From: Girardia tigrina
Lineage: Eukaryota
Direction: 5' to 3'
Assembly: GCA_001938485.1 (NCBI GenBank)
Contig: MQRK01226569.1
Span: forward strand, 1-64,000
Length of the DNA: 64,000 nucleotides
A model generated the notes under the pieces. It searched no databases and was not told the origin of the DNA. It worked only from the letters and a program-made list of their open reading frames with translations. The position numbers and the translations under genes are program-made. Positions 1,535 to 42,020 of the stretch are shown here, piece after piece. Positions within the stretch are counted from its first letter, which is position 1, and every line of letters starts with the position of its first letter.

Positions 1535-3447
1535 GTATCTATAAGTATATATTGTTATATATATAATCATCACGTTCATAAGGTCTTGTGATGATTTATT
1601 GTCGCCAGTTTGATCTTTTGCCGCTTCGAAAACGATTGTTATTTCAAAGGAATATCGATTTTCGACTGCCGGGAGATCGTTCTGTCGATCGATTTATCGG
1701 AACTCGATTCAACGAGAGAATCATCACTGTCTGAGTCGACAATAAATTTACTCAATTTTGAATCGATATATTTTAAGGTGATTTTCGACTTTGTTGACGA
1801 ACTAATTCTGTGAAAGCATCGAAATCGTTTTCGGAACTTATTCATTATTGACGAAAATATGGTTAAATTTAAATCACTGATTTAAAATCAGATTGTAAAC
1901 AATTTGAATTTCGTTATTTACAATTCAATTTGAATGAACCAATTGAGTCTGAATTATGAGTGTGTTGCGTGTGGATTATCTGTAATGGGTTTGTGTGTGT
2001 AAAAATGAATAATGTAAATGTGTTTCTGTGAATTTTAATTAGTTAAAAAATTGTATATGTATGTAAAGACTTTTGATAAAAATTTATCACAATTTTGCGT
2101 AACAAAAAAATACTTGAATTATTTTTGTTTAAATTTATCAAATGATTATTGTTTGATACGTGACTAAAAGGCCCAATTTCAAATTTTTAGTGAATTAAAA
2201 AGCAGTGGTGTAAAAATATTTAATCACAACAAAAAATAGTGAATTTGTTTAAATACAAATATGTTCTCTTTCGTCTCGTTAAATTCGTTCAAAAGGGAAA
2301 TTTGAAAAAAGCTTTGTCTGAAATATGAATTTTTCCCTGATTAAATTAGTTGTTGTTTTTACCAAATCAAAAATAGAGTCATTACAAATGGATAATTCAA
2401 AAATCGAAGAATTAAAGCTCCATGAATCATTGGAAAGTTCTCTAATCAAAGTCCTATCTCATAATTCGAATTGATTGATCAATTCGTCTCCGAGTTGTAT
2501 AGTTCTAGAAGTATTTGATGAAAATAAAGAGAATTCCGAGATGGTTCGACATTCGAAAAAGGTCAAATAGAAATTTTCGTTCAGTCAAGATATATGAACA
2601 ATGTCAACGAAAAGAAAGTCAATACCGCTACTTTTAACTCTATCGTTGGAGCCTAAAAAACAGCAAAATAAAAAGTCTATTCAGACTTTAGGAAAAACAT
2701 CTGCCTTTGGTATGGAAAAAGGTTCGATAACTAATGTTCAAAAATGTACAGATTCCAAGGGTTCTAAAAATGCTTTAAAAGGAAATCAAGAAACAAATAT
2801 TAAAACCGAACTTGACATGGACTATTGCCAATATGTACAAAGTTTTTAAATCAAAAACTTTTTTAATAATGCTATTAATGTTCAAAAATCTCCAAGTCAG
2901 CCAGGAGACTAAAAATGGTGATATTGATGTCCTGAAGTTCTTTTCGGATTTGAATAAGGATGTACTTAAAATGAATAATTTGATAAAAACAGTTCGAAAA
3001 TTTGAAGAAACTGAACTTCAATATAAAATCAAATAAATATATCTCATCTTCCTCTGAGATACAACAGCATTTATAAATAAAAATATTCTTACACTTAATT
3101 TTTCGAATTTATTTGTTTAGGTTGTTGTTAATTTTGGTTACATTTTAGATGGTAGTGATTTGGTTGTTGTTTCACAGGTGACTTTTTTGTTTTATTAAAT
3201 CGTTTGAAGCTTTGGAAAAAATAATTTTATTATTTTAAATTGGTCTTCAATAAAAAAAAGTCTGAAAAGGTTTTTCATGATTCGAATGTTTATTCTCTTA
3301 AAATATAACTCTATGAAAACATTCTTGTGAAAGTTTCACTATTATAAATTTAAAGTTATTTTCATAATTCAAAAATAATTGGTTTTCAATTTATTTTTCG
3401 ATTATTCAGAATTAATATTCCTTATGATTATTTCAATATTTTTAGAA
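1535..3447 (+). repeat. Unclassified ~1.9-kb dispersed repeat, copy 1
   Basis: Colinear with the reverse complement of 22996-24912, sharing ORF remnants FRKRFRCFHRISSSTKSK and MDNSKIEELKLHESLE. Confidence 0.85.
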
Positions 3448-3694
3448 AAATAATAAACATTTAATTAGAATATCCGTGTTAATATAATTTGAATTAAATT
3501 TTAATAAAATAATTACTCATTATTTTAATCATTAAACGGATGACTTTTTAATAATATTTTTTTAATAATTTACTTTAAATAGATACAAAAAAATAATTAC
3601 CTCAATATTTTTAATTGCGTTTTGTGTTTCTATAGAAATGTAACTTTGTATATAAACGAGTATTAAAATTTCACAAAGATCAGAATCATTAAAA

Positions 3695-4102
3695 ATGACT
3701 ATTAAAATTTATATATTGTTATATATTTTGTCTTTGGCATCCTTGTATTGGACCCAAGATGTGAATCCAGACTTGAATGAAGATTGGAACCCCTTTGTGA
3801 GAAAGTTCGGCAAGAGTTATGCAAACCAAACGAAAGAAACTCGTCGTCGTAGATCTTGGGAAAGAAATATAAAATTAATTGAAAAACATAATCTTGAATA
3901 TTATCTCGGTCAAAAATCGTATTCGATGGGTATAAATAAGTTCTCCGACATGACGCAAGAAGAATTTGCGGCGATATATTTACGTTCGAACATCACCGTG
4001 ACACTACCAAATGATACGTCGACGGTTAAACTAAAAAGTCTGTCACTACCGTATAGCGTCGAGTGGAACAAGCAAGGATATGTGACCCCCGTGAAATATC
4101 AA
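3695..4102 (+). CDS. Cathepsin L-like paralog A, exon 1 (signal peptide, I29 prodomain, start of mature enzyme)
   Basis: Signal peptide, ERFNIN-like ETRRRRSWERNIKLIEKHN, GINKFSD, SVEWNKQGYVTPVKYQ, then GT donor at 4103. 408 nt, same length as exon 1 of paralog C. TATATAAA at 3649-3656. Confidence 0.9.
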
Positions 4103-4455
4103 GTATATTTTGATTAAAATGGCATTTAAATTGATATGATTGATTAATATTAAAAGCTAACAAATTAAAAAATTCTAAAGTATTTATTTAATTATTTATT
4201 AAATTTTATTTTTGAAAAAAAATTATGTTATTTTAATTCTAGAATAATTAAAGGGAATAATCAGATTCTTTACATTTTATCCATATGATCACAAAATTTC
4301 GATTTTAAAACGCATTCTTAAAAAGGAAAAATAAATAATAATAATAATTAATTACACAATCTTTAAAAGATTAATAATATTATCTTTAAAATAAAATGTC
4401 TGATTTGTAAATATGAAGAGAACTTCGTATATATCTAATATATATTTATATTTAG

Positions 4456-4674
4456 GGAAACTGTGGGCCTTGTTGGGCATTTTCTGCTGTGGGAGCACTG
4501 GAGAGTCAATATTACAAGAAAACGAATACCCAACTTCGGTTTTCAGAACAACAGCTTGTTGACTGCAATTCCTCGAATTACGGATGTAACGGAGGATGGA
4601 TGACTCGCGCTTTTCAATACGTTACCAATACAGGAGGAATTCAAATGGAATCAGATTATCCATATGAAGCAAGG
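4456..4674 (+). CDS. Cathepsin L-like paralog A, exon 2 (catalytic Cys region); later exons not found on the + strand
   Basis: tttag|[10 protein letters not shown]...SEQQLVDC...GCNGG...YPYEAR|gtaatt. 219 nt, phase 0. Confidence 0.9.
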
Positions 4675-5099
4675 GTAATTATTTATTTCTATTTGAATTT
4701 GATAATTTCCATAAGTACATTAAAGAATACATAAAAAACTATTTACGTATTTATTAATTTAAAATGCGCTGTAAATAAGAGAAATAAATAAGAGAAAGAT
4801 TAATGCACTTTGTGTTTAGTAAAAAATTATTTATGGAGAGAAAGAACACTAAATTTATAAATTTTAACTATTTACTCTTTTGTTTGGGATTGAGTAAGTG
4901 AAATATTGCAAAATAACAATTGTTTTGATATATAAATGATATTCTATAATAAAATCTATACCTTTAATAAAACAAAATTAAATTAAAAAATTAATTAATC
5001 TTGGTTTTGTTTTGACTGTTCCTTACTCTGAGGGTTTCAGGAAATTCAAAAACTCTATTATGAAACATTATGAAAATAATTTATTAAATGTAAAAATTA

Positions 5100-5590
5100 T
5101 ATCTAGAACATATAAGATAGGAAATTTGTTTACAATAAATCTGTCACTCCAACTGGTTTATGCTCAAATTTAGTTGATCAATATAAATGCAATGGGTGTG
5201 ACGCCACATACATCGGAGAGACTTGTCGTCATCTCTGTAAACGAATTCAGGAACATAATCGCAGGGAAAGTGATAGCAATATTGCTCAACATAAGAAGAA
5301 CTGTTTGAATAGTAAAGTTGATGTAAGTAATTTTAAAATTTTGTGTTCACAATTTGATAATTACTAGGAGAGGGTGATGTGTGAAGCATTGTTGATCAAA
5401 TCCTTTGATCCTAAAATCAATGTCCAAACACCATCCTCTTCAACTTTATTGAAAGTATTTTCATGATTCAAATTGCATGATAATTACTTAAACATTGCTT
5501 TGATATATAAACGCAAGTATATCATTGTTAATTCAGTCTGATGATGACGGTTGATCCGTCAAAATTAATAACAATATCTTCTGATGAAAA
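5100..5590 (+). mobile_element. Penelope-like element 3' fragment (GIY-YIG endonuclease remnant plus 3' pLTR)
   Basis: Translation QYKCNGCDATYIGETCRHLCKRIQEH...EALLIKSFDPKINVQ; homologous to 46065-46370. Confidence 0.85.
5524..5575 (+). ncRNA. Minimal type I hammerhead ribozyme, probably inactive (G12A)
   Basis: CUGAUGA-U, stem II gacgg/ccguc, AAAA in place of GAAA, UUAA palindrome, UA; stem I gt/ac with a possible attgt/acaat extension. Confidence 0.7.
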
Positions 5591-21417: not shown

Positions 21418-21768
21418 ATGAAAATGATAGCAAAGGAGTTTTATAATAAGTGTAGGGGTATTGCCCCGCCGAATCCGGAGGTTCTCTGTCCCGGCGCATG
21501 TTTCTGTTGTGGAGACATAATCCATCAAAGAAGAGAATGTCCCTTGAGACATCGTTGTTTAATATGTGGTAAGCACGATCATAGATTCAAAGATTGTTAT
21601 TTGGCAAAAAAACGAAATAAAATTTTCCCAAGACGAATAATATGCATTCATGATGATGAAACTGATGACCCGATCGTGGAAAAATTACAGGAAATTGAAG
21701 AAGATAACGACGAAAAATATCGATATCAACACCTCGTGTCTATCTCGTCAGTGGGGTTGAGTCAGTAA
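21418..21768 (+). mobile_element. LTR-retrotransposon gag remnant with two CCHC zinc knuckles
   Basis: CFCCGDIIHQRREC and CLICGKHDHRFKDC (C-x2-C-x4-H-x4-C). Confidence 0.7.
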
Positions 21769-21907
21769 ATATGATTGAAGGAAGAGAAAGAGGATGAAGA
21801 ATGAGATAGGTTATGAAAGAGGGGATGTTCCAGAAGGCAGATGGTAGAATATGGAGTTTGATGAATTGATGTCAAAAGCATTGCATTTCATGTAATGTCC
21901 AAAGTAA

Positions 21908-22250
21908 TGCCGTACCGATATCCGCAGCAGGTCTCCAAGGTGAGCAGCATCTAGTGTTAGAACAGTGTAGGTAAGGGAAGTCGGAAAATTAGATCCATAC
22001 CTTCGGTAAAAGGATTGGCTCTAGGGATCGGGTATGATGGGCTTTATTGAGAAGTTGATTGGATGGGACTTGAGCTTTCTTCGGTAAATGGCAGGAGTAA
22101 CTATGACTCTGTTGTGGTTGTGCCTAAAGTTTATTGGTTTTGGCGCTTTTTCCGACCGATTGATGGGCAAATTTAGCTAGATGACTTATTTTTCGGAATT
22201 TGTTGTCGTCGTTATACAATTAGCGATCAACTTAGAACTGGAACGGACTA

Positions 22251-22285
<35 letters not shown>

Positions 22286-22375
22286 CGATCGCTGGTGAAC
22301 GGCTTTGACGCAATGTGATTTCTGCCCAGTGCCATGAATGTCAATGTGAAGAAATTCAATTAAGCGCTGGTAAAT

Positions 22376-22435
<60 letters not shown>

Positions 22436-22518
22436 TGCACGAATGGATTAACGAGATTCCTACTGTCCCTATCTTATATCTAGCGAAACTACAGCCAAGG
22501 GAACGGGCTTGGAACGTA

Positions 22519-22559
<41 letters not shown>

Positions 22560-22680
22560 ACTTTGTGAAGAAACATTAAAGGTGTAGTATAAGTGGGGAC
22601 TTTGGTCAGCAATGAAATACCACTACTTTGATCGTTTCTTTACTAACTCAGTAATGCAGTAAAGTTAACTTCGGTTAATT
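21908..22680 (+). rRNA. 28S rRNA: 28S (LSU) rDNA orphon, pseudogenic fragment
   Basis: Universal LSU blocks tccgcagcaggtctccaaggtg, gtaagggaagtcgg, gactgtctaattaaaacaaagcattgcga, gagtaactatgactctcttaaggtagccaaatgcctcgtcatctaattagtgacg and gcggggaaagaagaccctgttgagcttgactctagt, with scattered substitutions; no flanking rDNA unit. Confidence 0.95.
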
Positions 22681-22734
22681 TATTTAATGAGAAAATAATT
22701 TCAATTATGTTTATGTAATCATTATGTAATTTAA

Positions 22735-22983
22735 ATCATGAAAATACTTTCAATAAAGTTGAAGAGGATGGTATTTGGACATTGATTTTAGGATCAAATG
22801 ATTTGATCAACAATGCTTCACACATAACCCTCTTCCTGTAATTATCAAATTGTGAATACAAAATCTTAAAAATACTTACATCAACTTTACTATTCAAGCA
22901 GTTTTTCTTATGTTGAGCGATATTGCTATCACTTTCGCTGCGATTATGTTCCTGAATCCGCTTACAGAGATGACGACAAGTCT
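22735..22983 (-). mobile_element. Penelope-like GIY-YIG 3' fragment
   Basis: Reverse complement is closely similar to 5220-5465. Confidence 0.85.
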
Positions 22984-22995
22984 AAAAGATTGATA

Positions 22996-24912
22996 TTCTA
23001 AAAATATTAAAATAATCATAAGGAATATTAATTCTGAATAATCGAAAAATAAATTAAAAACCAATTATTTTTGAATTATGAAAATAACTTTAAATTTATA
23101 ATAGTAAAACTTTCACAAGAATGTTTTCATAGAGTTATATTTTAAGAGAAGAAACCTTCGAATTATGAAAAAAACTTTTCAGACTTTTTTATTGAAGACC
23201 AATGTAAAATAACAAAATTATTTTTTCAAAGCTTCAAACTATTTAATAAAACAAAAAAATCAAAAAAAAACAAAACCAAATCACTACCATCTAAAATTTA
23301 ACCAATAATAACAACAACCTAAACAAATAAATTCGAAAAATTAAGACTAAGAATATTTTTATTTATAAATGCTGTTGTATCTCAGAGGAAGATGAGATAT
23401 ATTTATTTGATTTTATATTGAAATTCAGTTTCTTCAAATTTTCGAACTGTGTTTTTATCAAATTATTCACTTTAAGTACATTTTAAGTATTTCAAATCCT
23501 TATTGAGGACATCAATATCACCATTTTTAGTCTCCTGGACGATTTTCAAAATTGGAGATTTTTGAACATTAATAGCATTATTGAAAAAGCTTTTGATATA
23601 AAAACTTTGTCAAGTTCGGTTTTAGTATTTGTTTCTTGATTTCCTTTTAATGCATTTTTAAAACCCTTGGAATCTGTATATTTTTAAACATTAGTTGTCG
23701 AACCTTTTTCCATACCAAAGACAGATGTTTTTCCTAACGTCTGAATAGACTTTTTGTTTTGCGGTTTTTTGGCTCCAACGATAGAGTTTAAAGTAGCGGT
23801 ATTGACTTTCTTTTCGTTGACATTGTTCATATATCTTGACTGAAGGAACACTTTCTGTTTGACCTTTTTCGAATGTCGAGCCGCCTCGGAATTCTCTTTA
23901 TTTTCATCAAATACTTCTAGAACTATACAACTCGGAGACGAATTGATCAATCGATTCGAATTGTGAGATAGGACTTTGATTGGAGAACTTTCCAACGATT
24001 CATGGAGCTTTAATTCTTCAATTTTTGAATTATCCATCTGTAATGACTCTATTTTTGATTCGGTAAAAACAACAACTAATTTAAATCCGGGAAAAATTCG
24101 TATTTCAGACAAAGCTTTTTTCAAATTTTCCTTTTGAACTAATTTAACGAGACGAAAGAGAACATATATTTGTATTTAAACAAATTCACTATTTTTTGTT
24201 GTGATTAAATATTTTTACACCACTGCTTTTTAATTCACTAAACATTTGAAATTGGGCCTTTTAGTCACGTATCAAACAATAAACATTTGATAAATTTAAA
24301 CAAAAACAATTCAAGTATTTTTTGTTACGCAAAAATTGTGATAAATTTTTATCAAAAGCCTTTACACACATACACAATTTTTAAACTAATTACAATTCAC
24401 AGAAACATATTTACATTAATCATTTGTACACACACACAAACCCATTACAGATAATCCACACGCAACACACTCATAATTCAGACCCAATTGGTTCATTCAA
24501 ATTGAATTGTAAACAACAAAATTCAAATTATTTACAATCTGATTTTAAATCAGTGATTTAAATTGAACCATATTTTCGTCAATAATGAGTTCCGGAAACG
24601 ATTTCGATGCTTTCACAGAATTAGTTCGTCAACAAAGTCGAAAATCGACTTAAAATATATCGATTCTCCGGTATTACAAAAAATCGATTCAAAATTGAGT
24701 AAATTTATTGTCGACTCAGACAGTGATGATTCGCTCGTTGAATCGACTTCTGATAATTCGATCGACAGAACGATCTCCCGGCAGTTGAAAATCGATATTC
24801 CTTTGAAATAACAATCGTTTTCGAAGCGACAAAAGATCAAACTGGCGACAATAAATCATCACAAGACCTTATGAACGTGATGATTATATATATAACCATA
24901 TATACTTATATA
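22996..24912 (-). repeat. Unclassified ~1.9-kb dispersed repeat, copy 2 (inverted)
   Basis: Reverse-complement match to 1535-3447; retains a 146-aa ORF (23684-24124). Confidence 0.85.
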
Positions 24913-28999: not shown

Positions 29000-29827
29000 T
29001 TTTAGGTCACCTTGCTGAGCATATTCAAGCTCCTGAGCCAGGTAAAGGTCGCGCTAGGCACAATGCTCAGTTGGTTGCAACTCGTGTATCGCAGACAATT
29101 GAGGCCTCGAGGCAAATTATTCAGAATTCTAGGATTGTGATCCCACTTGACGCTGCAATATTTCTTCCAAGTTATCGTTCTAGTCAACGTACAATTTAAC
29201 GAATACGAAAACAAGAGAATGCTCCTTGGCCAAATCCAAATCAACTTTCAGAAATAAATGTTCCTGAAACTTTGAGGTTTACAATTAGAAAATAATCTTT
29301 TTTGTTATACGATTCCGGATCTAATGATGCCAACTGGATTTCAGTACAACTTCAAACATAAATCTGATGGCTTCTTTTGAAAATTGGTTTATAGATGGGA
29401 CATTCTCTGCCGCCCCTCGTTTATTTTACCAAGTTTATACTTTACATGTCTTGAAATCAAACAAAGTATTTCCTCTTGTTTATGCATTGATGACTAATAA
29501 AACTCAATTAAATTACACTCGTATGTATGAAGAGCTTTTAAGACAAGAACCAAATTTAAATCCACAAACTATTATGATGGATTTTGAAAAGGGAGTAATG
29601 AACGCTGTTTTTCACTGTATTTTGAAATGCTACTGTTAAAAAAGGCTATTTTTTTTCATCTGAACCAATTAATTTTGGAAAAAAATAAAAGAAACATCAA
29701 ATCTTCCGAATCTCTTTTTAAACAATTTAAAATCTATTTAAAAAATCCGCGGTAAAGTCGTCCGCGATAAAGCCGTCCGCGGTAAAGTCGTCCGTGATAA
29801 AGTTGTCCGCGGTAAAGTCGACGTACC
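29000..29827 (+). mobile_element. Mutator (MULE) transposase remnant with a 15-bp tandem terminal array
   Basis: WFIDGTFSAAPRLFYQVYTLH, PLVYALM, MMDFE; about five copies of ccgcggtaaagtcgt at 29747-29822. Confidence 0.85.
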
Positions 29828-32800
29828 TATTTAGGTGTATTAGAGGAGAAAATAATAAGTCTCTAACGTTATATGTCACTAACACTATCTGAAACTTGTT
29901 AATATTGTAATAAAACTTTTATCTATTCAAAGAATATTTCATTTTTTTATTTATTTCATATAGTCATGTATTTGTTGTTTTTCTGATTCATATTTATCAT
30001 TTATTCTTTTCATAAAAATATAGAAAAATGTAATCATCAATTATATTGTACAATGGAGTTAATGAAATTTGGATGAAGTTTTCAGATCAGAGTTAAAGCA
30101 AATTAGAGCCCCATTCTTCCACCGTCTTTTTGAATCATTATTAAACAAAAGGTTGATAATCATTTTTGTAATGTCCGAATCGTGAGCTAATATGACCGGA
30201 TATTTCGTTTCCCATGGTACCACATCAGTGAATATGATCCTGCTGTTCGATCGAAGCAATCCATCTGATGCCATCACTGGATTGGCTTTCAAAATACGAC
30301 TGCTCACTGGACAATCTGCCTCATTCTGTAGGAGCTTAATCTCGTTCTCAAAATGCTTCAATTGATCGTCTTTTATTAACATTTTCTCAGCCATGCGCGT
30401 CCATTGAGATTCATTTTTAGATTAAATGTTATCATCTATTACATCTTTCCTTTAAGTCTTTTTCATCTCATCTTTTAGACTTTCGGCCTTTTCCGTAATT
30501 GCCTTCGCCCACTCCGTTTCTCATTTAAGAATCCAGAATTTTGTATCGTCTAGCTCCTCTGGTTCATCCACAGAAACTACAGTCATCATTGTGAACTCTT
30601 TTCTGCGTTCTTCGTTCTTTGCCTTAATTGACATTGCTGGTTGCTTCGGCCATTCTTCACTTCCTTTTGACAGAAACTCAGGTCCACTTTTCCAGATTTC
30701 ATTGGTCGTTAATTGTTCAACCGTTGCTCCTCGCGTGAGCAGATCAGCAGGATTTGACTTTGAATTCACATGACGCCATTGAAGCCCTGTTGTTCGTTCC
30801 TGGATGTAGCTTACACGATTTGCCACNNNNNNNNNNNNNNNNNNNNNNNNNNNNNNNNNNNNNNNNNNNNNNNNNNNNNNNNNNNNNNNNNNNNNNNNNN
30901 NNNNNNNNNNNNNNNNNNNNNNNNNNNNNNNNNNNNNNNNNNNNNNNATAAACATGCCGCGACGAGCTCCAATCTTGGAATCGAGACCGATTTCAATGGA
31001 GTCACTCGAGTTTTTGCAAATACTTGATTCACAACTACTTCGTTCTCATTTTATACTCTCAACTATACTGCGGTCCCATAGGCTTCGCAAGAGGCATCAC
31101 AAAACACATGGCATGAAATCGAAGATTCTGGCGAAACTCCCAGATATCGTTTGAATTGCAATCGATCTAACCGTTCCAATTGTTCATACCAATTCCGCTA
31201 GTCCTTTCGGAATTCCTCCGGCAAATTATCGTCCCAGTCTAAGTTCATGATCCACAGTTTCTGCATCAAGATCTTTCCTTTTATGGTGACACAACTCAAA
31301 AATCCTAATGGATCGAATATCCTTGCAAGTTGACTAAGTAAAGTTCGTTTTGTCATTTTTGTTTTACCATCCACTTTTCTGGCATCAAAACAATAGATAT
31401 CTTTTGAGACGTCTCATTTCAACCTCAAAGTTTTGGTAGTCGTCGCCCCTTCTTCAAACATAATATTCTTTGGTCGCTTCTCTTTCGGAACTAACTGCAT
31501 CAATTTTTCAGAATTTGAGACCCATTTATGAACTTCCATTCCGGCGTGACCCCATATCTCTTTCAATTGTCTGAACAACTTTGTCGCCTTCTTTTCCGAA
31601 TTTACAGAATCTATACAATCATCCATATATGTCGATTTCTTTATAACTTCCACCGCGCTTGAATATTTTTCCTCAAATTGATCTGCATTTATTCTGGAAA
31701 CGAGCTGTGCTAAAAACGGCGATGAGTTTAGACCAAACACCACTCGATTAAATTCGAAAGTCTTCAATATTCCGCTCTGATCGTCCTCCCATAGGAAACG
31801 CAAGAATTTTCTGTCATCTTTACACACCTCTACTTGCAGATACATTTCCTTAATATCACACGATATTACATAACGATTTCTTCGCATTCTCAGAAGTACA
31901 TCCAATAATTCGGACTGCAGCTTTGGCCCTGTGTGTAAATAATCGTTAATACATCTCCCTTGAACTTTGGCGGCTGTATCAAACACAATTCGGAGTTTAA
32001 TTTCTCCTTGGTTACGCTTGACCACAGGGAAGTGTGGTAAGATCCATTGTTGTTCATCTCTGATCACTGATCCCATTTCTGAAATGTATCCTTTTCCGAT
32101 ATATTCTTGCAACACTCTCTGATAAACATCTTTCACTTCCGGTTGTTTATCTACCATTCGTCGGAGGGATTTCAATCTATTATTTGCCATTCCAAACGTG
32201 TTTGGCCACAATTCAACCTTGTATTTCCATGGTAATCCGACACAGTATCTCTCCCCATCATAATGAGCAGTTTCCATTGCTCGATTCAGGATCCCATTTC
32301 CTTTGGTTGCATTAACTCTTCCTCTAACATCGTCGAGATTTTCAAATTCTTCCAATTTCCAGAGAAGTTCCATGTCGCTCTCTGCTTTGATTTCGCGGCT
32401 GAAATATGTACAAATAAAATTGGATTGTGTTGATTTATAGTCTTGGTGTACCTTCCCCATACACGTCCATCCCAGTGGAGTGAGACGCGCAACTTGATCT
32501 TCCGTATGTCCTCGAACTTCTTTTAGTGCTGTTTGAAATTTCAAATAATTAGCACTGATCAACCCATCAATCACACCCTTCTTGCCGATGCTCGGAAAAC
32601 GTATTCTTTTTAAATGACTCCACTTGGATTTTGTCTGATTCCAATCAACTATTTCCATCGGCCCGGTCACATTTTTCACCGCAAGTGCTGAGACACTCTC
32701 TTTAACTCATCTTCTTTCATCACATATTTGAAATCTTACTCTCTCCACCGGTATCGACCTTCTTTCTCCTCCCAGAACTTGGACACTGATCTTGGCTTGA

Positions 32801-33075
32801 TCTCCATACAGCTGCAATTCATTCGCGAATTCAATCACGAAAGTCTCTGTGCTGGCGTCATCTAATAGAAAATTTCCTCTCAGCCATTTGTCACCATTCA
32901 TCACCCACGCGCTTACGGTTCGCAGAGCAATAACTCATTATTGCTCTCTCTTTTGACTCGGTCTGGTGCTGGTGCTCGTGATCAGTGTGTGATTTTTACT
33001 TCCAGACTCATCTTGTTCATTTTTATTTCCGTTGTAGGACTCTGCATCGTGTCGGTTTTCAGCACCGATCTTTCT

Positions 33076-33195
33076 GTGAAAATATCTGCAGTCGACCGTA
33101 TTGCACGATTGTTTGAAGATGCTCTTGCAAAGCTCTGGGTGCGAGAACCGACAATCTTGGCCGAATCTGCAATATCCTCTTTCGTAATTTTTGCA
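33076..33195 (-). other. Tandem CCCH zinc fingers within the BEL/Pao gag frame
   Basis: CKNYERGYCRFGQDCRFSH (C-x7-C-x5-C-x3-H) and CKSIFKQSCNTVDCRYFH (C-x7-C-x4-C-x3-H). Confidence 0.88.
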
Positions 33196-34275
33196 TATTG
33201 ACACAGCTTTCTTCTCGGGTCCCTGATGACTTCTCTTTGATTTTTGACACTCTGTAGTCATAGAAACAAAGGATTTTTTCCGATCGTTGTTTATGATCGT
33301 TCACCTATTTCTATCGGCACTCAACATCCCGATGCCATGGACTGTCTCGGCCACCATTCTTTGGAGTTTTGCTTCCTTCTCCAGCCACTCTTTCAAAGTC
33401 ACCACTCCTTCTCCGAGATTCAAACCTTGTCGGTGCCTCTCCCACATTAGCACCATGTAAACTGGCAGTTTTTGCAACAGACTTTGGTAGAGCAGTCCGT
33501 TGCCCAATTCTCCTACCTTCCCAATTGTCCTTAATCTTAGCACAGGGCTGTCGAGCAAAGTCACAAATTTATCTAGTTGTGCAGCGGTGACTTCGGAAAT
33601 GGTGCGAAACTCGGCTACCTCCTTCATAATTGCCGAGTAGCTGCGATTTTCGCCACCATAAAACTTTTCAAGTTTTTCTAGGATAGCTTTATAAGCTTCT
33701 CCTCCAAATCAGAAATTGTGCACAAGCTCTCGAGCTTGACCCTCCAGACACTCTTCCAACTACAGCTGCTTGTCCACATCCGGAATCTCCATCTTGTCCA
33801 CACATTCATCAAAGATCTCTCTCCATTTTGAATATTTTATGTCATTTCCAGAGAACCGGGGTAGCTGTAATCGTTTCAATCTGAACGTTCCCAACGAGTT
33901 TGTTGACGAATGATTGAAACTCTTGCTTTCTGGAGCTGCAGTTGAATTCCATTTCGGATCGGTCTGCGCTTCGAATTTCAACTGATACTCATCGTGCTTG
34001 TTCTCGATCTCTTTCATCTCGTCCATCAGCTTTGCCACTTCATCTTTGTGGCCTAATTCCTTCCCCAAATTCACGAGGTCTTCGAACCTTTTCGTCGCCC
34101 TTTCGAACTCATTTTCGTAATCTTCGCCTCTCTTCAGTACTTCTTCATTCGTTCGAAGTGCCTCCAAGGCTTGATTTCACCTCCTTGTCAATTGCCGTTT
34201 CCAGTTCGGCTTTTGGTATTTTCCGTCTTCCCATTGATTCTCCGGACTTTCTACTCCCGCGGTCTTCTTATCGCT

Positions 34276-34503
34276 TCCTCCTCGTAACCGGAGCAATAAA
34301 TGGATTGTGGCGTCTTTATGGATGTTGTATTCTCCACACATTCTACCGTTCTCGAGCTGTTTCCCGGCGAAAATCAACCTCTGTTGATCAGGAGGAACAC
34401 CTTCTTTCTCCTGGATCTTGGCCTTGATTTCGTCGATTGAGTCGCTTGGCTGAACCTCCATTACGATTGTCCTACCCGTTAGCACCCTAATAAAAATTTG
34501 AGA
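34276..34503 (-). other. Ubiquitin domain embedded in the retroelement frame
   Basis: 76 aa, 52/76 identical to canonical animal ubiquitin by manual alignment; ends LRLRGG; Met1 replaced by Ser; intronless. Confidence 0.95.
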
Positions 34504-36299
34504 CACGACATCAGATTTAGTTGATCGATCGTTAGTTCAACTGATATGACGGCGCCCGCTTCCAAATTGTCCATTTAAGAGAGCTTCTTCAACGGATTCT
34601 TCTGATTTGAATTCGATGTAAGTGGAAATTAAGACGACATTCCCGTCGCATGAGGCACAATTACAGAAAATTTAGAAAAATTCTTCTTTGTTCACGAGGG
34701 TCTCAATTACATGTAGCTGGTCCTCATAATTCTGAAATCCTTCATAGTTCAAATCGGACTGGTTTTTAAATGCTTCGAACTCTAATTGCAGTCTCGACCA
34801 CTCATCCTCTCTAATGATGCGACTCGATCTCGACCAAGATTCATCCGATAACTGCACATTTTCATTGCACCTAAAATCACAATTTCTCATCTTTGGATCG
34901 GATGCTGAAGACCAGACTCTATGATTCACCGACAGTGACATCCTCAACGAAACATTCACCGAAACACAATCAAACATGTTCAAATAATACAGTGAACATT
35001 GAGGGAAAGGTCTCGACCGGGTGCTGGGCCCAATATTTAGTCGGTGGAACTCGTTACCCAAGATTCGCAAAGACTCATCATGACAAGCGCTACAGCAATC
35101 ACTATCAGAAACCTCCCCAGAAAACTTAACGCGATTCTCAAATTGATTTATGTCATCACTCTCAATCCCCATCACAACACTCACATTCAAAACATGGAGT
35201 CTATCAAACACACTCTGACACTCATCCATCAGGGGGAAGAATGCTCGAGATTCACACACAAGCCCACGACCCAGAGGACCACTCATCAACACCAGAGCGC
35301 CGCAACCACGCTCTGCTACCAGAAATGGCGGTGCGAGAGCGAGCGCAGCTTGGTGGCCGCGGCGTCTTGACGCTGGGGGTGGACTGCGAGTCGTGGGGGG
35401 CTTAAATTATCAATCTCACGGACGTCAGGTGAGCTCCAACGTTTGTCGTCCGATATTTTTGTCATTGTCGTTGGCTGATCAGAATCCGATGAGGGTTTCA
35501 TGATGGCTTCTTCTTCCGACAGTCCGCCACAACGATCGATATGACCTCGTGATCTCCCAATCGAGCTTGAGATTCGATGAGAGAATTCTCGACTCTTGAG
35601 TCCGATCATTACCTCTCGCGAATTTATCATCACCATCGTTTGACGCTTCAATTCTCAACATCGGACTCACAGTGACAATTTCCTCATTGATCGGTAGACA
35701 ATTCGAATTCGAANNNNNNNNNNTCATTACAGTCGTTACGAAATTCGTTTTGTTCGATTCAAATTGTTGAGTTTCATTCACCAACATAGACATTCAACTC
35801 TTTTTTATTTCACGTTTTATCAATTCACACTTTAAAAAAATGTCAACCCTCCAACAAACAATAAAAGAACTTCGCGCCAAAATTTTTATTTATTTATGAA
35901 ATTCAACGATTCAAACAAATTGAATCTAATAAAAATTTTAAAATTTAAAATTAAAAAAATTAAATTTAAAATTAAAAAATTAAAATTTAAAATTACAAAT
36001 TAAAATTTTTCGAAAATCAAAAAGTGAAATTAATTTATTTTGACTAAAATATTCGAGTCATTCCCAAATTGGCCAATCTATTGTTAGATTGGCCAATTAT
36101 AGGTCCAATTCGAATTTATAGACTCGTACATTTTCCTTGAAATGTTTGAGTGTCTCGAGAAAATAATGTAACCGTTGGCAGGGGCCTCGGTCTAGGTCTA
36201 GTTTGAACAGCGGCATTATGGTATTTAACTCCGGAAACTTTATGGCGAAAGCCGCCAAGAAAAAGTTTTTTTTGTTTTATTTTTTTATAACAGTAACAA

Positions 36300-38447: not shown

Positions 38448-40430
38448 TGGTGACTTCACACCACGAGACTCCGAATATCAAAGACCAAGAAATATTTGAT
38501 GGATCAGAACACAAATTACAGGAATTCTTGATATGTTTTAACAAATATGCAAAGATTATGGGTTATCAAAAAAGAGGAAAATCCTACTGATAACACCATA
38601 CATGACTCTAGATGCGATTGTGAAGTGCTAGAAAGCACCAGGGAGTACTTGCAAAGAGAAACTGCTACTGAAATTATAAAGTCATAAAATCTATTTGTTA
38701 GACATGTCATGAGGAAGAATATATTCGAAGATAATGTCCAAACGTTAAGAGCAGCTACTGTCAAAGAAGAGGACATCTACGAACACAATGTTATGCAAAC
38801 CCGAATAGGTTTAAAGAACGTGACCAACGGAAATGTGACAATATTAAAATCGTTGCAATGACAGTAGAGATTATTTTAGTCAACGATATAAAAAACGACC
38901 GGCATATATAAGTAGGAAACAACAGTTGGCGGAGTTAGAAGATATGGATGATTAACTAGACATAAGATCGGAAATAACTGATTGAAGAGAAGAGAATACA
39001 GCAAGAGATTATTCTAGAGGTAAAGGAAGATTTAGAAACGAAGATGGGGACGAGAATTCATGATCACAAGGAGAGATAATCAGTACGCTTCATTAGGAAA
39101 TCAATGTAAATGTATGTTTGATTGTATGTATCGATGTGTGTTTGATTTGACGAATGAAAATATTCTTCGAGAGATTTAAGAAATTGAATGTGAACATATT
39201 GAAAATCTAGAGCAGTATAACAGTATGAAAAATAAAGTAAACGATTATAAACTAAATAGTACAGCGTAAATATTGAAGATATCAAAGTTGAAAAATTGAA
39301 AAGGCATATCAGTGTGGATTTTTACGTGAAAGATATAATTTTTTATTTTCTATTGGACAGAGTGAATGTAATAAAAGGATAGATAATTAAAAATGTGAAA
39401 GATAATTAAATCAAAGAAACGAAAAAAACGTATCCATTGCACCAATGACTCAGAAGTGATAAATTATGGAATCATGCAATTGAATGTGGCAATTGATGGA
39501 ACGCAGAACTTAAAAGAGTTTTGTGTGGTCAAAGAATTAGACCTCAAAATAATCACATATATAGATTTCTTGGAGATATTCGGAATAAAACTAAAAATAT
39601 TGATGATTAGAGACAACACACCAGATGAGGACAGACGAAAAAGAATAATGAAAATATACAACAAGTAACTTGATAGGCAAGTAATGAAGATTCTAACAGA
39701 TTATAATTACGTAATCGTCGCCGATAAGTGGGATATTGGGAAAACATAACTGACAAAAAACATATTAGAAATACACGGGGATCCAATACTAGTAAAGTTT
39801 TTTCGGTAACCTAAACACAATAATTTTGAAGAAAATGACATAATCGAAAAGTGTAGTTCGCCATGGATTTTTTCATTAGTATGTGTGTAGAAGAAGGAAA
39901 AACAATATATTCGAATGTATGTAAACCTTTGCCTGTTGAATAGAATTATCGTCAGACCAGCGTTTCCTGTGCCAAATGTCGATGATATACTGAACACACT
40001 GAATACTGCGCAATTTTTCTATACAATTGATCTTGGAAAGGCGTAATATCAACTCAAGTTGGAAGAAAAATCAAAGATTAAAACAGGATTCACAACAAAG
40101 AACGGACAGTATTGTTTTAAAAGAATGCCTTTCGGGATAGCAGCAGCCCCAGCAACTTTCCAAGAGCTAATGGTCAAAGTCCTAGGAGATTTGAACTGGA
40201 TAAAACTGCATAAAACATGTACTGGAAAAAATAAAGGAAGCAGGTTTAAGAATTAACTCAGAAAAGTGCCAATTTTTACCAGAAAGAACAAAAATTTAAG
40301 GATATATTGTCAGCAAAAATGGTATAGACACTGATCAAACAAAGATAAAAAATTTCCGAACCCATAATGTAATAAACTTTTGATATGTTTCTTGGGTCAG
40401 ACAAATTACTACGGAAAATTTTGGCATTGT
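38448..40430 (+). mobile_element. Heavily decayed Ty3/Gypsy internal region
   Basis: FDGS gag-like motif, SSPW, FPVPNVDDIL, KTGFTTKNGQYCFKRMPFGIAAAPATFQ. Confidence 0.85.
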
Positions 40431-40984: not shown

Positions 40985-42020
40985 AGAGGGGACTAAAAAA
41001 CCGCGCTTTTTTCGATAAATGTATTTCTATTGGAATTATTGATTTACAGGTACAAGTAAATTTTAATATAAATATATTATATATAAATTTTTTTGTGATG
41101 GTTGAACGTCTGTTTTTGATGAAAAAGGTTCAGGTAGGTCACGTGAAATTGGCGAAGAAATAGCGAAAAAACTCAAGAAAATCATGCAGTGTGAGCGACG
41201 AATCACCACCAGAGAACTGACAATGCGATTAAATGTCAGCACAAGTTCCATACAATCACTGCTTGCGAAAACTGGCATTAGAAAATTGTGTTCACACTTC
41301 GTGCCACGGTTTATAACAGCAGACATGAAGGATCGACGATTGATGTGCTGCCAGGAAAACGTAAACCTCTATGAACGTATTGGAGACCTCTTCTTACAGA
41401 ATATTATGACAGTGGATGAAACACTACTTGCCCTTTATGTCCCAGAATCAAGACATGAGTCTCAAGAGTGGAAGCTGCCAGGGGAAGGGTGTTCGAAGGT
41501 GTACGATCATCAACCTCTGACAAAAAAGCCATCATACTCACCACTTTTTGGGATGCAAATGGAATGATCCTCGCAGATTTTGCGGAAGCTGTAGTTCGTA
41601 TCAACAGTGAATACTACTCTCGACTCGTGCTACAGGCCAGAAAGCTGAGAAGGAAGAGCAGAGTTTGTGAGTTATATTATTTGCACGACAATGCACCCAT
41701 CTACACAACTGGGCTGTCAATGTCATCAATTGAGGGTTGTGATCTCACCCTGCTCTCCCACCCGCCATACAGTCTGGATCAGGCGCCATCCGATTATCAT
41801 CTCTTCAACCACCTCAAGCGAGCTCTCAGGGGTCAATATTTTGCTACGAAAGAAGACTTGAAGGAGGCAATCTCAAATTTCTTGGCTCAACAGTCTCCGA
41901 AATTCTTCGAAAAAGCCTTTCTGGACCTTGTTGTGCGCTGGAAAAAATGTGTTGGTGTGAATGGAGATTTCTTTGAGAAATGATACCTTTATAACTTGCT
42001 TGTTATGAAAAATAAATTTC
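40985..42020 (+). mobile_element. mariner transposon remnant in intron 1 of cathepsin paralog C
   Basis: FVPRF, TVDET, LHDNAP, HPPYSLDQAPSDYHLF; one frameshift. Confidence 0.9.

Follow-up and report, generated by a model that had tools for sequence, protein, structure and literature searches.

Few structural features of retroviruses and LTR retrotransposons are as constant as the CCHC zinc knuckle, whose triple form is used to identify the BEL/Pao Gag. A stretch of 64,000 nucleotides from Girardia tigrina (contig MQRK01226569.1, referred to here as the window) holds an element whose Gag has two CCCH zinc fingers between capsid and protease. The locus raises the question of whether a retrotransposon lineage can exchange its knuckles for another zinc finger, where such a finger would have come from and what it would do in its new place. 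An earlier note, made from the letters of the window, had proposed that the knuckles were replaced by a captured host-type domain, as a second capture in an element that also carries ubiquitin.

A decayed BEL/Pao-type element encodes two CCCH fingers in its Gag

The element consists of the following parts, given as positions in the window.

34560 to 30152 region, minus strand: decayed BEL/Pao-type element, in one frame from ubiquitin through RNase H
34276..34500, minus strand: ubiquitin domain in frame before Gag (PF00240, E 6e-27), di-glycine end intact
33880..34275, minus strand: Gag N-terminal helical region, from the alignment with relatives
33331..33879, minus strand: Gag capsid region, DUF1759 and the next helices (PF03564, E 1e-5 on the stop-free piece); the region used for the tree
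32935..33330, minus strand: whole nucleocapsid slot, 131 aa without CCHC and with a net charge of +11, made up of basic linker, two fingers and linker
33139..33195, minus strand: CCCH finger 1, C-x7-C-x5-C-x3-H, in the nucleocapsid slot (six-frame scan; PF00642)
33076..33129, minus strand: CCCH finger 2, C-x7-C-x4-C-x3-H (scan; identical spacing in P0165 and P0164)
32455..32934, minus strand: aspartic protease, LLDDAS at 32851-32868 (59% identity to P0164, which has an Asp_protease_2 match there)
31525..31914, minus strand: reverse transcriptase core, YMDD at 31618-31629 (PF00078, E 4e-11)
30949..31400, start approximate, minus strand: RNase H region, FCDAS at 31090-31104 (tblastn with P0164)
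30827-30947: assembly gap directly after RNase H
30152..30826, minus strand: Pol sequence that follows RNase H and reaches the integrase zinc domain, at whose start this copy ends (tblastn with P0164 1320-1532, 49%)

Judged by the descent of its capsid, protease and reverse transcriptase, the window element is a BEL/Pao-type LTR retrotransposon. A tblastn search with the database protein P0164 aligned residues 177-1277 to window positions 34323-30949 at 48% identity (48% over 1128 alignment columns). Pfam matched DUF1759 in the window and DUF1759, Peptidase_A17 (which Pfam itself names Pao) and DUF5641 in P0164; DUF1759 and DUF5641 we take to be BEL/Pao-type domains. The order protease, reverse transcriptase, RNase H in the window, and the full order with integrase in P0164, match the Belpaoviridae, in which Pol lies downstream of Gag in the order protease-RT-RNase H-integrase (PMC8742986). 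The GC content of the element was about 0.40-0.46 compared to 0.28 in its flanks, and the surrounding window is AT-rich and eukaryotic. Between 34560 and 30950 there are 12 in-frame stop codons, translated as X for the searches, and no frameshifts. The copy ends at the start of the integrase, and the depth of contigs from public sequencing runs falls near 30095. The window element is thus a dead, truncated copy. Belpaoviridae elements have long terminal repeats, a primer-binding site for tRNA-Arg or tRNA-Gly and a polypurine tract. In this copy, cut at its 3' end, none of the 20 repeat families listed (of 30) was a direct repeat flanking the element, and no primer-binding site was recognised by eye. 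At positions 35165-35554 the contig depth reaches up to about 40-fold the Pol value and many contig ends are loose; this stretch may be an LTR that also exists as solo copies, or else a repeat of its own.

A six-frame scan of the whole 64-kb window gave two CCCH matches, both on the minus strand, separated by 3 residues and in the same frame as ubiquitin, DUF1759, LLDDAS, YMDD and RNase H. No CCHC motif, strict or loose, was found in any frame of the element, and the only CCHC pair in the window (21499-21597, plus strand) lies outside it. The scan thus bore out both the finger spacings and the lack of CCHC that had been described between the DUF1759 region and the protease. When the 440-residue Gag was shuffled 20,000 times, a single finger arose 16 times and a tandem pair never, which rules out a chance motif. 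An artefact of the wrong frame was also ruled out, since the frame is that of capsid and protease and the fingers lie inside stop-free natural proteins.

The two fingers differ in quality. Finger 1 scored 36.6 bits against PF00642 (cut-off 20.5, E 4e-9), whereas finger 2 alone reached no Pfam family in the window (best PF22628, E 0.7) and is thus the weaker of the two; the assignment to zf-CCCH instead of CCHC held for finger 1. All four ligands of finger 2 are present, with an aromatic pair ahead of the His and no aromatic between Cys2 and Cys3. On a home-made CCCH profile, finger 2 scored 7.0 bits in the window, a value that 3 of 300 ligand-fixed shuffles also reached, 18.2 in P0164 and 38.9 in P0003. 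Pfam matched PF00642 in P0165 (34.2 bits) and over two fingers in P0003 (43.0 bits); in P0017, PF00642 stayed below its cut-off at 18.2 and PF14608 was above it (27.2 compared to 25.8). The best PDB sequence matches of the fingers, over about 45 residues, were CPSF30, MBNL1, YTH1 and Tis11d (E 2e-7 to 4e-3). Both AlphaFold models, one from a 3-row alignment and one of the finger pair alone, were unreliable over the fingers (pLDDT about 26-33 and a mean of 52.6). A Foldseek search for related folds gave no match at E 0.001, and its weak matches were of the capsid to PNMA2, Copia and MLV (E 0.4-1).

The CCCH pair occupies the knuckle slot in a small set of relatives

Searches with Gag-protease, one of which listed the best 150 of 2638 matches, and a cluster look-up gave 170 proteins. 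Four of these were dropped: P0017 and P0163 belong as fragments to the P0164 cluster, and both P0049 and P0094 have multiple CCCH fingers and no Gag parts. With the window added there were 167 rows, and the 159 that covered the capsid were kept. Before the nucleocapsid slot 43 of these end; 111 carry CCHC, four the CCCH pair and one neither. The replacement proposed in the earlier note implied that CCCH fingers are uncommon in BEL/Pao Gags, and at 4 of 116 visible slots they are rare. Loose CCCH matches in P0030, P0036, P0048 and P0078 overlap knuckles 2-3 of CCHC relatives and were not counted. P0110 had no fingers, and since its capsid is near-identical to that of knuckle-bearing P0091, this is probably a gap in the gene model.

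The CCCH rows are the window and the three database relatives P0165, P0164 and P0003, which have the pair in the same slot, and the trait is backed by only three independent CCCH families. P0165 is 84-86% identical in the capsid and has no stop codon between the capsid and the beginning of the protease, a span that includes both fingers. P0164 is an uninterrupted Gag-Pol of 1926 aa with DUF1759, the CCCH pair, protease, reverse transcriptase, Peptidase_A17, integrase and DUF5641, and without CCHC; its finger spacing is identical to that of the window, and its RT-RNase H region shares 58% identity with that of the window. The pair has thus been retained in an uninterrupted Gag-Pol protein. P0003 is 46% identical in the capsid and has two fingers, 10 residues apart, that both match PF00642. 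Its tail is CFAP58-like, which probably makes the record a gene-model chimera beyond the protease; its close sister P0170 ends where the first finger would start. The triple Cys-His box (CX2CX3-4HX4C, CX2CX2-4HX4-5C, CX2-4CX3HX4H) was absent from all frames of the window and from P0165, P0164 and P0003, which keeps the window element out of the canonical triple-knuckle Gags. The named neighbours in the search, a Haliotis record and a MAG record, hint at the mollusc-rich Sailor lineage. Scans for relatives at the DNA level gave one locus in 168 candidate metagenome stretches, an unrelated CCCH gene, and none in viral (0/4 and 0/7) or genome (0/517) candidates. Metagenome contig L001 (588-791) encodes one CCCH finger with a Cys-rich finger behind it, a generic match with no sign of being a donor.

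The distance from the end of the capsid to the first Cys was 43-45 aa in three CCCH proteins and 89 in P0003, compared to a median of 36 in triple-knuckle relatives (14-66, n=84). From the last His to the protease motif it was 60-75, compared to a median of 75 (35-119, n=69). The fingers thus sit in the slot of the knuckles, which are absent, and the replacement in place that had been proposed was upheld. The net charge of the slot was +7 to +11 in the CCCH proteins and had a median of +9 in 57 CCHC slots, so its basic charge was unchanged by the exchange of fingers. All 8 ligands are kept in the four CCCH proteins. Finger 1 is 53-60% identical between families and its adjoining linkers 10-24%; this higher conservation of the finger is a sign of selection. 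Finger 2, at 28-37% identity, is little above the linkers, with its ligands kept.

Contigs from three public runs cover the finger bin (33020-33214). Their depth there was 5994, 27406 and 143, compared to 5817, 30491 and 140 in a Pol bin (32045-32239), where contig depth is not to be equated with copy number. In X1 and X2, individual contigs join the fingers to the capsid side (32994-33473), and in X3 to the protease side (32684-33302); a fourth run, X15, had only 2 reads on the element. An insertion private to the window copy was ruled out by P0165 together with the contigs from three runs. The same evidence speaks to the concern, raised in the earlier note, that the family as a whole might have canonical CCHC knuckles here, since both stop-free P0165 and the contigs carry the fingers. 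The contig depth of capsid bins was 3-8 times that of the finger bin, so copies with another nucleocapsid, or internally deleted ones, may exist; the deeper bins may also reflect more distant families.

The exchange is an old event of the lineage

For the capsid tree, 48 rows were taken from the 159, namely a complete ubiquitin-Gag clade of 15 and 33 others picked by hand; its bootstrap had not fully settled. The four CCCH rows and three truncated rows formed a 7-row clade (100/99), nested in the 15-row ubiquitin-Gag clade (100/99), to which P0166 and P0023 with their triple knuckles also belong. On this tree the nucleocapsid type need have changed only once, and a quick tree of all 159 rows recovered both clades (99 and 97). 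The window grouped with P0164 and P0003 in a protease tree of 73 rows (SH-aLRT 95) and with P0164 in an RT-RNase H tree of 29 rows (100/100), both built entirely from search matches. These two trees agreed with the capsid tree; thus, both flanks of the slot are concordant and only the nucleocapsid changed. A protein from outside the ubiquitin clade, P0034, fell inside a 4-row RT-RNase H clade with the window.

Splitting the CCCH clade was rejected (p-AU 0.007 and 0.024), and a single origin of the pair is well supported. Joining the clade to non-ubiquitin rows was rejected in three of four trials, the exception being P0034 (p-AU 0.17), and rooting is imperfect, as a quick tree of 32 rows placed the long outgroup P0099 within the CCCH group. 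For these two reasons the order of events, with the ubiquitin leader first and the fingers second, is likely but less firm. Capsid identity within the CCCH lineage is about 42-61%, and the finger exchange is an old event at the level of the lineage. Of the capture first proposed for this one element, the replacement stood and the confinement to the element did not. That the knuckles were replaced by a CCCH pair throughout this lineage we consider almost certain.

The ubiquitin leader and other features of the window

The ubiquitin of the window (34276-34500) has 52 of 75 residues identical to ubiquitin in an alignment. A ubiquitin or ubiquitin-like leader marks the 15-row clade, as observed in the window, P0164, P0003, P0170, P0166, P0023, P0143, P0063, P0055, P0104 and P0135. 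The earlier note had asked whether leader and fingers occur together across copies; they are not tied, as ubiquitin is also found on the triple-knuckle proteins P0166 and P0023. The di-glycine end was present in 10 of 11 rows checked, and its retention even where the leader is degenerate suggests cleavage by host deubiquitinases. P0164 has such a degenerate, ubiquitin-like leader with a di-glycine end, in which Pfam found no ubiquitin match. Compared to the 52 of 75 residues in the window, this means that the leader decays unevenly or is refreshed, and the window ubiquitin could be younger than the fingers.

Fragments of HSP90 lie just before the ubiquitin in P0166 (residues 22-62) and P0143 (residues 76-141) and are either a real capture or a gene-model chimera. 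In the window, positions 34570-34623 (minus strand), in frame before the ubiquitin, resemble what we take to be the RNP1 end of an RRM; Pfam gave no match there at E up to 1. The CCHC pair outside the element lies in a short open stretch just upstream of two 28S rRNA fragments (21958-22715, plus strand), and the region 21499-22715 is possibly the remnant of an rDNA-associated element. A long inverted duplication spans positions 1540-5495 and 22707-24910; it is divided into several arms, most of which are 89-97% complementary. Two overlapping frames at 41106-41983 (plus strand) are presumably of a mariner-type transposase, and a fragment at 29328-29639 (plus strand) presumably of a Mutator-type transposase. 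A degenerate start of a Gypsy-type reverse transcriptase was read by eye at about 39780-40000 (plus strand).

The pair was most likely taken up from outside

On knuckle profiles the fingers scored no better than shuffles with fixed Cys and His, 40-278 of 300 of which reached their score; on the CCCH profile 0-6 of 300 did. The CCCH profile was built from two proteins retrieved for their likeness to finger 1 of the window and thus favours that finger, so the Pfam and PDB matches are more independent. By these measures the fingers appear to be without trace of knuckle ancestry, and the PDB matches and the profile test agree with the original impression of a likeness to cellular CCCH proteins and not to re-spaced knuckles.

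Re-spacing in place, with no capture, would require that the old knuckle ligands shifted and that finger 1 arose by duplication and came to resemble the cellular pattern by convergence. A starting point exists at the knuckle 2-3 junction, as its C-x5-C-x4-C-x3-H, present in 73 of 84 complete triple-knuckle relatives, is finger 2 minus two residues. Finger 2 of the window, P0165 and P0164 has the x4 and x3 spacings, and fingers 1 and 2 are mutually 37-50% identical. However, finger 2 scored 2.9-5.4 bits on a junction profile, inside the range of ligand-fixed shuffles, where true junctions score at least 29.2, and canonical junctions reached at most 7.5 on the CCCH profile compared to 29-54 for finger 1. 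In addition, a finger of MBNL1 also has the x7/x4/x3 spacing, and both fingers of P0003 pass PF00642. Re-spacing is thus very improbable, and the CCCH pair was most likely taken up from outside, once.

No donor of the fingers was found, the matches in PDB and the ESM Atlas being generic CCCH proteins or clusters with Atlas scores all below 0.9. The search for a host donor thus came up empty, which would also be expected if the donor was another mobile element, such as a CCCH Gypsy Gag like that of Saci-2 or a non-LTR ORF1. Such a donor would concern the origin only and is compatible with a role in packaging. The Saci-2 Gag is cited as CCCH-bearing (PMC2582038), and the 3-residue linker of the pair is far shorter than that in the aligned MBNL1 pair. 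On the other hand, the matches listed (best 150 of 2638) held no CCCH mobile-element protein besides these BEL/Pao Gags, and the two other CCCH matches were multi-finger proteins without Gag parts. We consider a mobile-element donor unlikely.

A probable nucleocapsid role for the CCCH pair

The best explanation as a whole, to which we assign a probability of about 0.6 from the sequences, is that the outside-derived pair now serves as the RNA-binding module of the nucleocapsid. The ancestor of a small BEL/Pao lineage, probably already with a ubiquitin-type leader, would have exchanged its triple zinc-knuckle nucleocapsid for a tandem CCCH pair by in-frame recombination, the simplest route being that reverse transcription switched templates to a CCCH-coding RNA packaged alongside. 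In the Belpaoviridae, Gag-Pol is made from genomic RNA, particles assemble and the element's own protease cleaves the protein (PMC8742986). In the window lineage, host deubiquitinases would trim the leader at the di-glycine, the capsid would then assemble, and the nucleocapsid freed by the protease would bind single-stranded genomic RNA via the CCCH pair. In Tis11d, each finger reads UAUU and aromatic residues stack on the bases, and the knuckle of MMLV prefers words ending in G (PMC1635273). A similar stacking of aromatics in the Gag fingers may select the genome for packaging, and the basic linkers may act as a general chaperone for primer annealing and strand transfer.

Alternatively, the knuckles were simply lost, packaging falls to the basic linkers and the CCCH pair serves some other purpose, for instance to stabilise, localise or shield the element RNA or to compete with host CCCH restriction factors. 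The slot has kept its basic charge and finger 2 is weakly conserved, as would be expected if this were the case. LTR elements with zero CCHC arrays exist, and Tas has no triple box (PMC2774666 and PMC554778, respectively), and ZAP, a CCCH protein, is reported to restrict retrotransposons. Against such a passenger stand the position of the pair, exactly where the knuckles had been, and the finding that all four members of the clade with a visible slot have CCCH only. None of these four has both types or neither, as expected for a one-for-one substitution. A passenger pair is thus unlikely, and the nucleocapsid role remains the preferred reading.

In a stronger form of the nucleocapsid role, the knuckle was discarded outright and the whole nucleocapsid job passed to a pair captured from a cellular mRNA regulator. 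This is possible but tentative. If true, the packaging signal would have moved from G-ending words to the U- or AU-rich words read by CCCH fingers, the element might gain an advantage over host CCCH restriction factors in binding its RNA, and together with Saci-2 it would represent a repeated, convergent solution in two superfamilies.

Comparison with known systems

The lineage resembles BEL/Pao elements (Belpaoviridae, Semotivirus; Sinbad, Pao, Roo, BEL, Suzu) in its DUF1759 Gag, LLDD-type protease and YMDD reverse transcriptase, in having Peptidase_A17 RNase H, integrase and DUF5641 within a single frame, ordered PR-RT-RH-IN, and in a basic, here putative, zinc-binding module between capsid and protease. 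It differs in that two CCCH fingers and a ubiquitin-type leader are found and the hallmark triple Cys-His box is not. That box is described as a BEL/Pao hallmark in PMC554778, which also states that it is lacking in Tas, the ICTV example of the family (PMC8742986); thus, the box does not define the family. Named BEL/Pao subclades are Sinbad, Sparrow, Surcouf, Suzu, Tas, Flow, Dan, BEL and Pao.

Saci-2 of Schistosoma mansoni, placed among Ty3/Gypsy, is a possible precedent for a CCCH Gag, as its Gag is said to have CCCH instead of CCHC (PMC2582038). Since Saci-2 belongs to a different superfamily, it would be an independent event, if real. The CHCC of the CsRn1 clade and the C-x2-C-x8-10-H-x4-C of Troyka are also lineage-wide departures from the knuckle (PMC12440569 and PMC2582038). 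In contrast to the window module, which matches a cellular finger family, these appear to be reshaped knuckles that keep the C-x2. MBNL1, CPSF30/YTH1 and Tis11d/TTP share the ligand spacing and aromatic positions of finger 1, and the second finger of MBNL1 has x7/x4/x3. The Gag pair differs from these cellular tandem fingers in that only about 45 residues match, the linker has 3 residues, the pair is embedded in Gag and no specific orthology is seen. The M2-1 protein of Pneumovirus has a C-x7-C-x5-C-x3-H finger and is a transcription cofactor, not a nucleocapsid.

In a literature search mostly without subscription journals and repeat libraries, we found no BEL/Pao precedent for a CCCH Gag. The main text of the BEL/Pao surveys PMC3118150, PMC8556966 and PMC6238403 contains neither 'CCCH' nor 'ubiquitin'. 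In PMC2864245, 'CCCH' stands for element names and not for finger motifs.

Implications

Nucleocapsid motifs were already known to vary, and the overall working of this class of elements is unchanged by the finding. A ubiquitin-led BEL/Pao clade that collects host-like fragments is apparently undescribed. A natural lineage with an uninterrupted Gag-Pol and another zinc finger in the slot means that the knuckle itself is dispensable, and suggests that the core RNA-gripping part of these elements can be replaced more readily than had been assumed. With CCCH and CCHC sisters side by side in one clade, a ready pair is available for asking what a nucleocapsid must do, be it genome selection, chaperoning of reverse transcription or the two together, and whether a change of finger is matched by evolution of the packaging signal.
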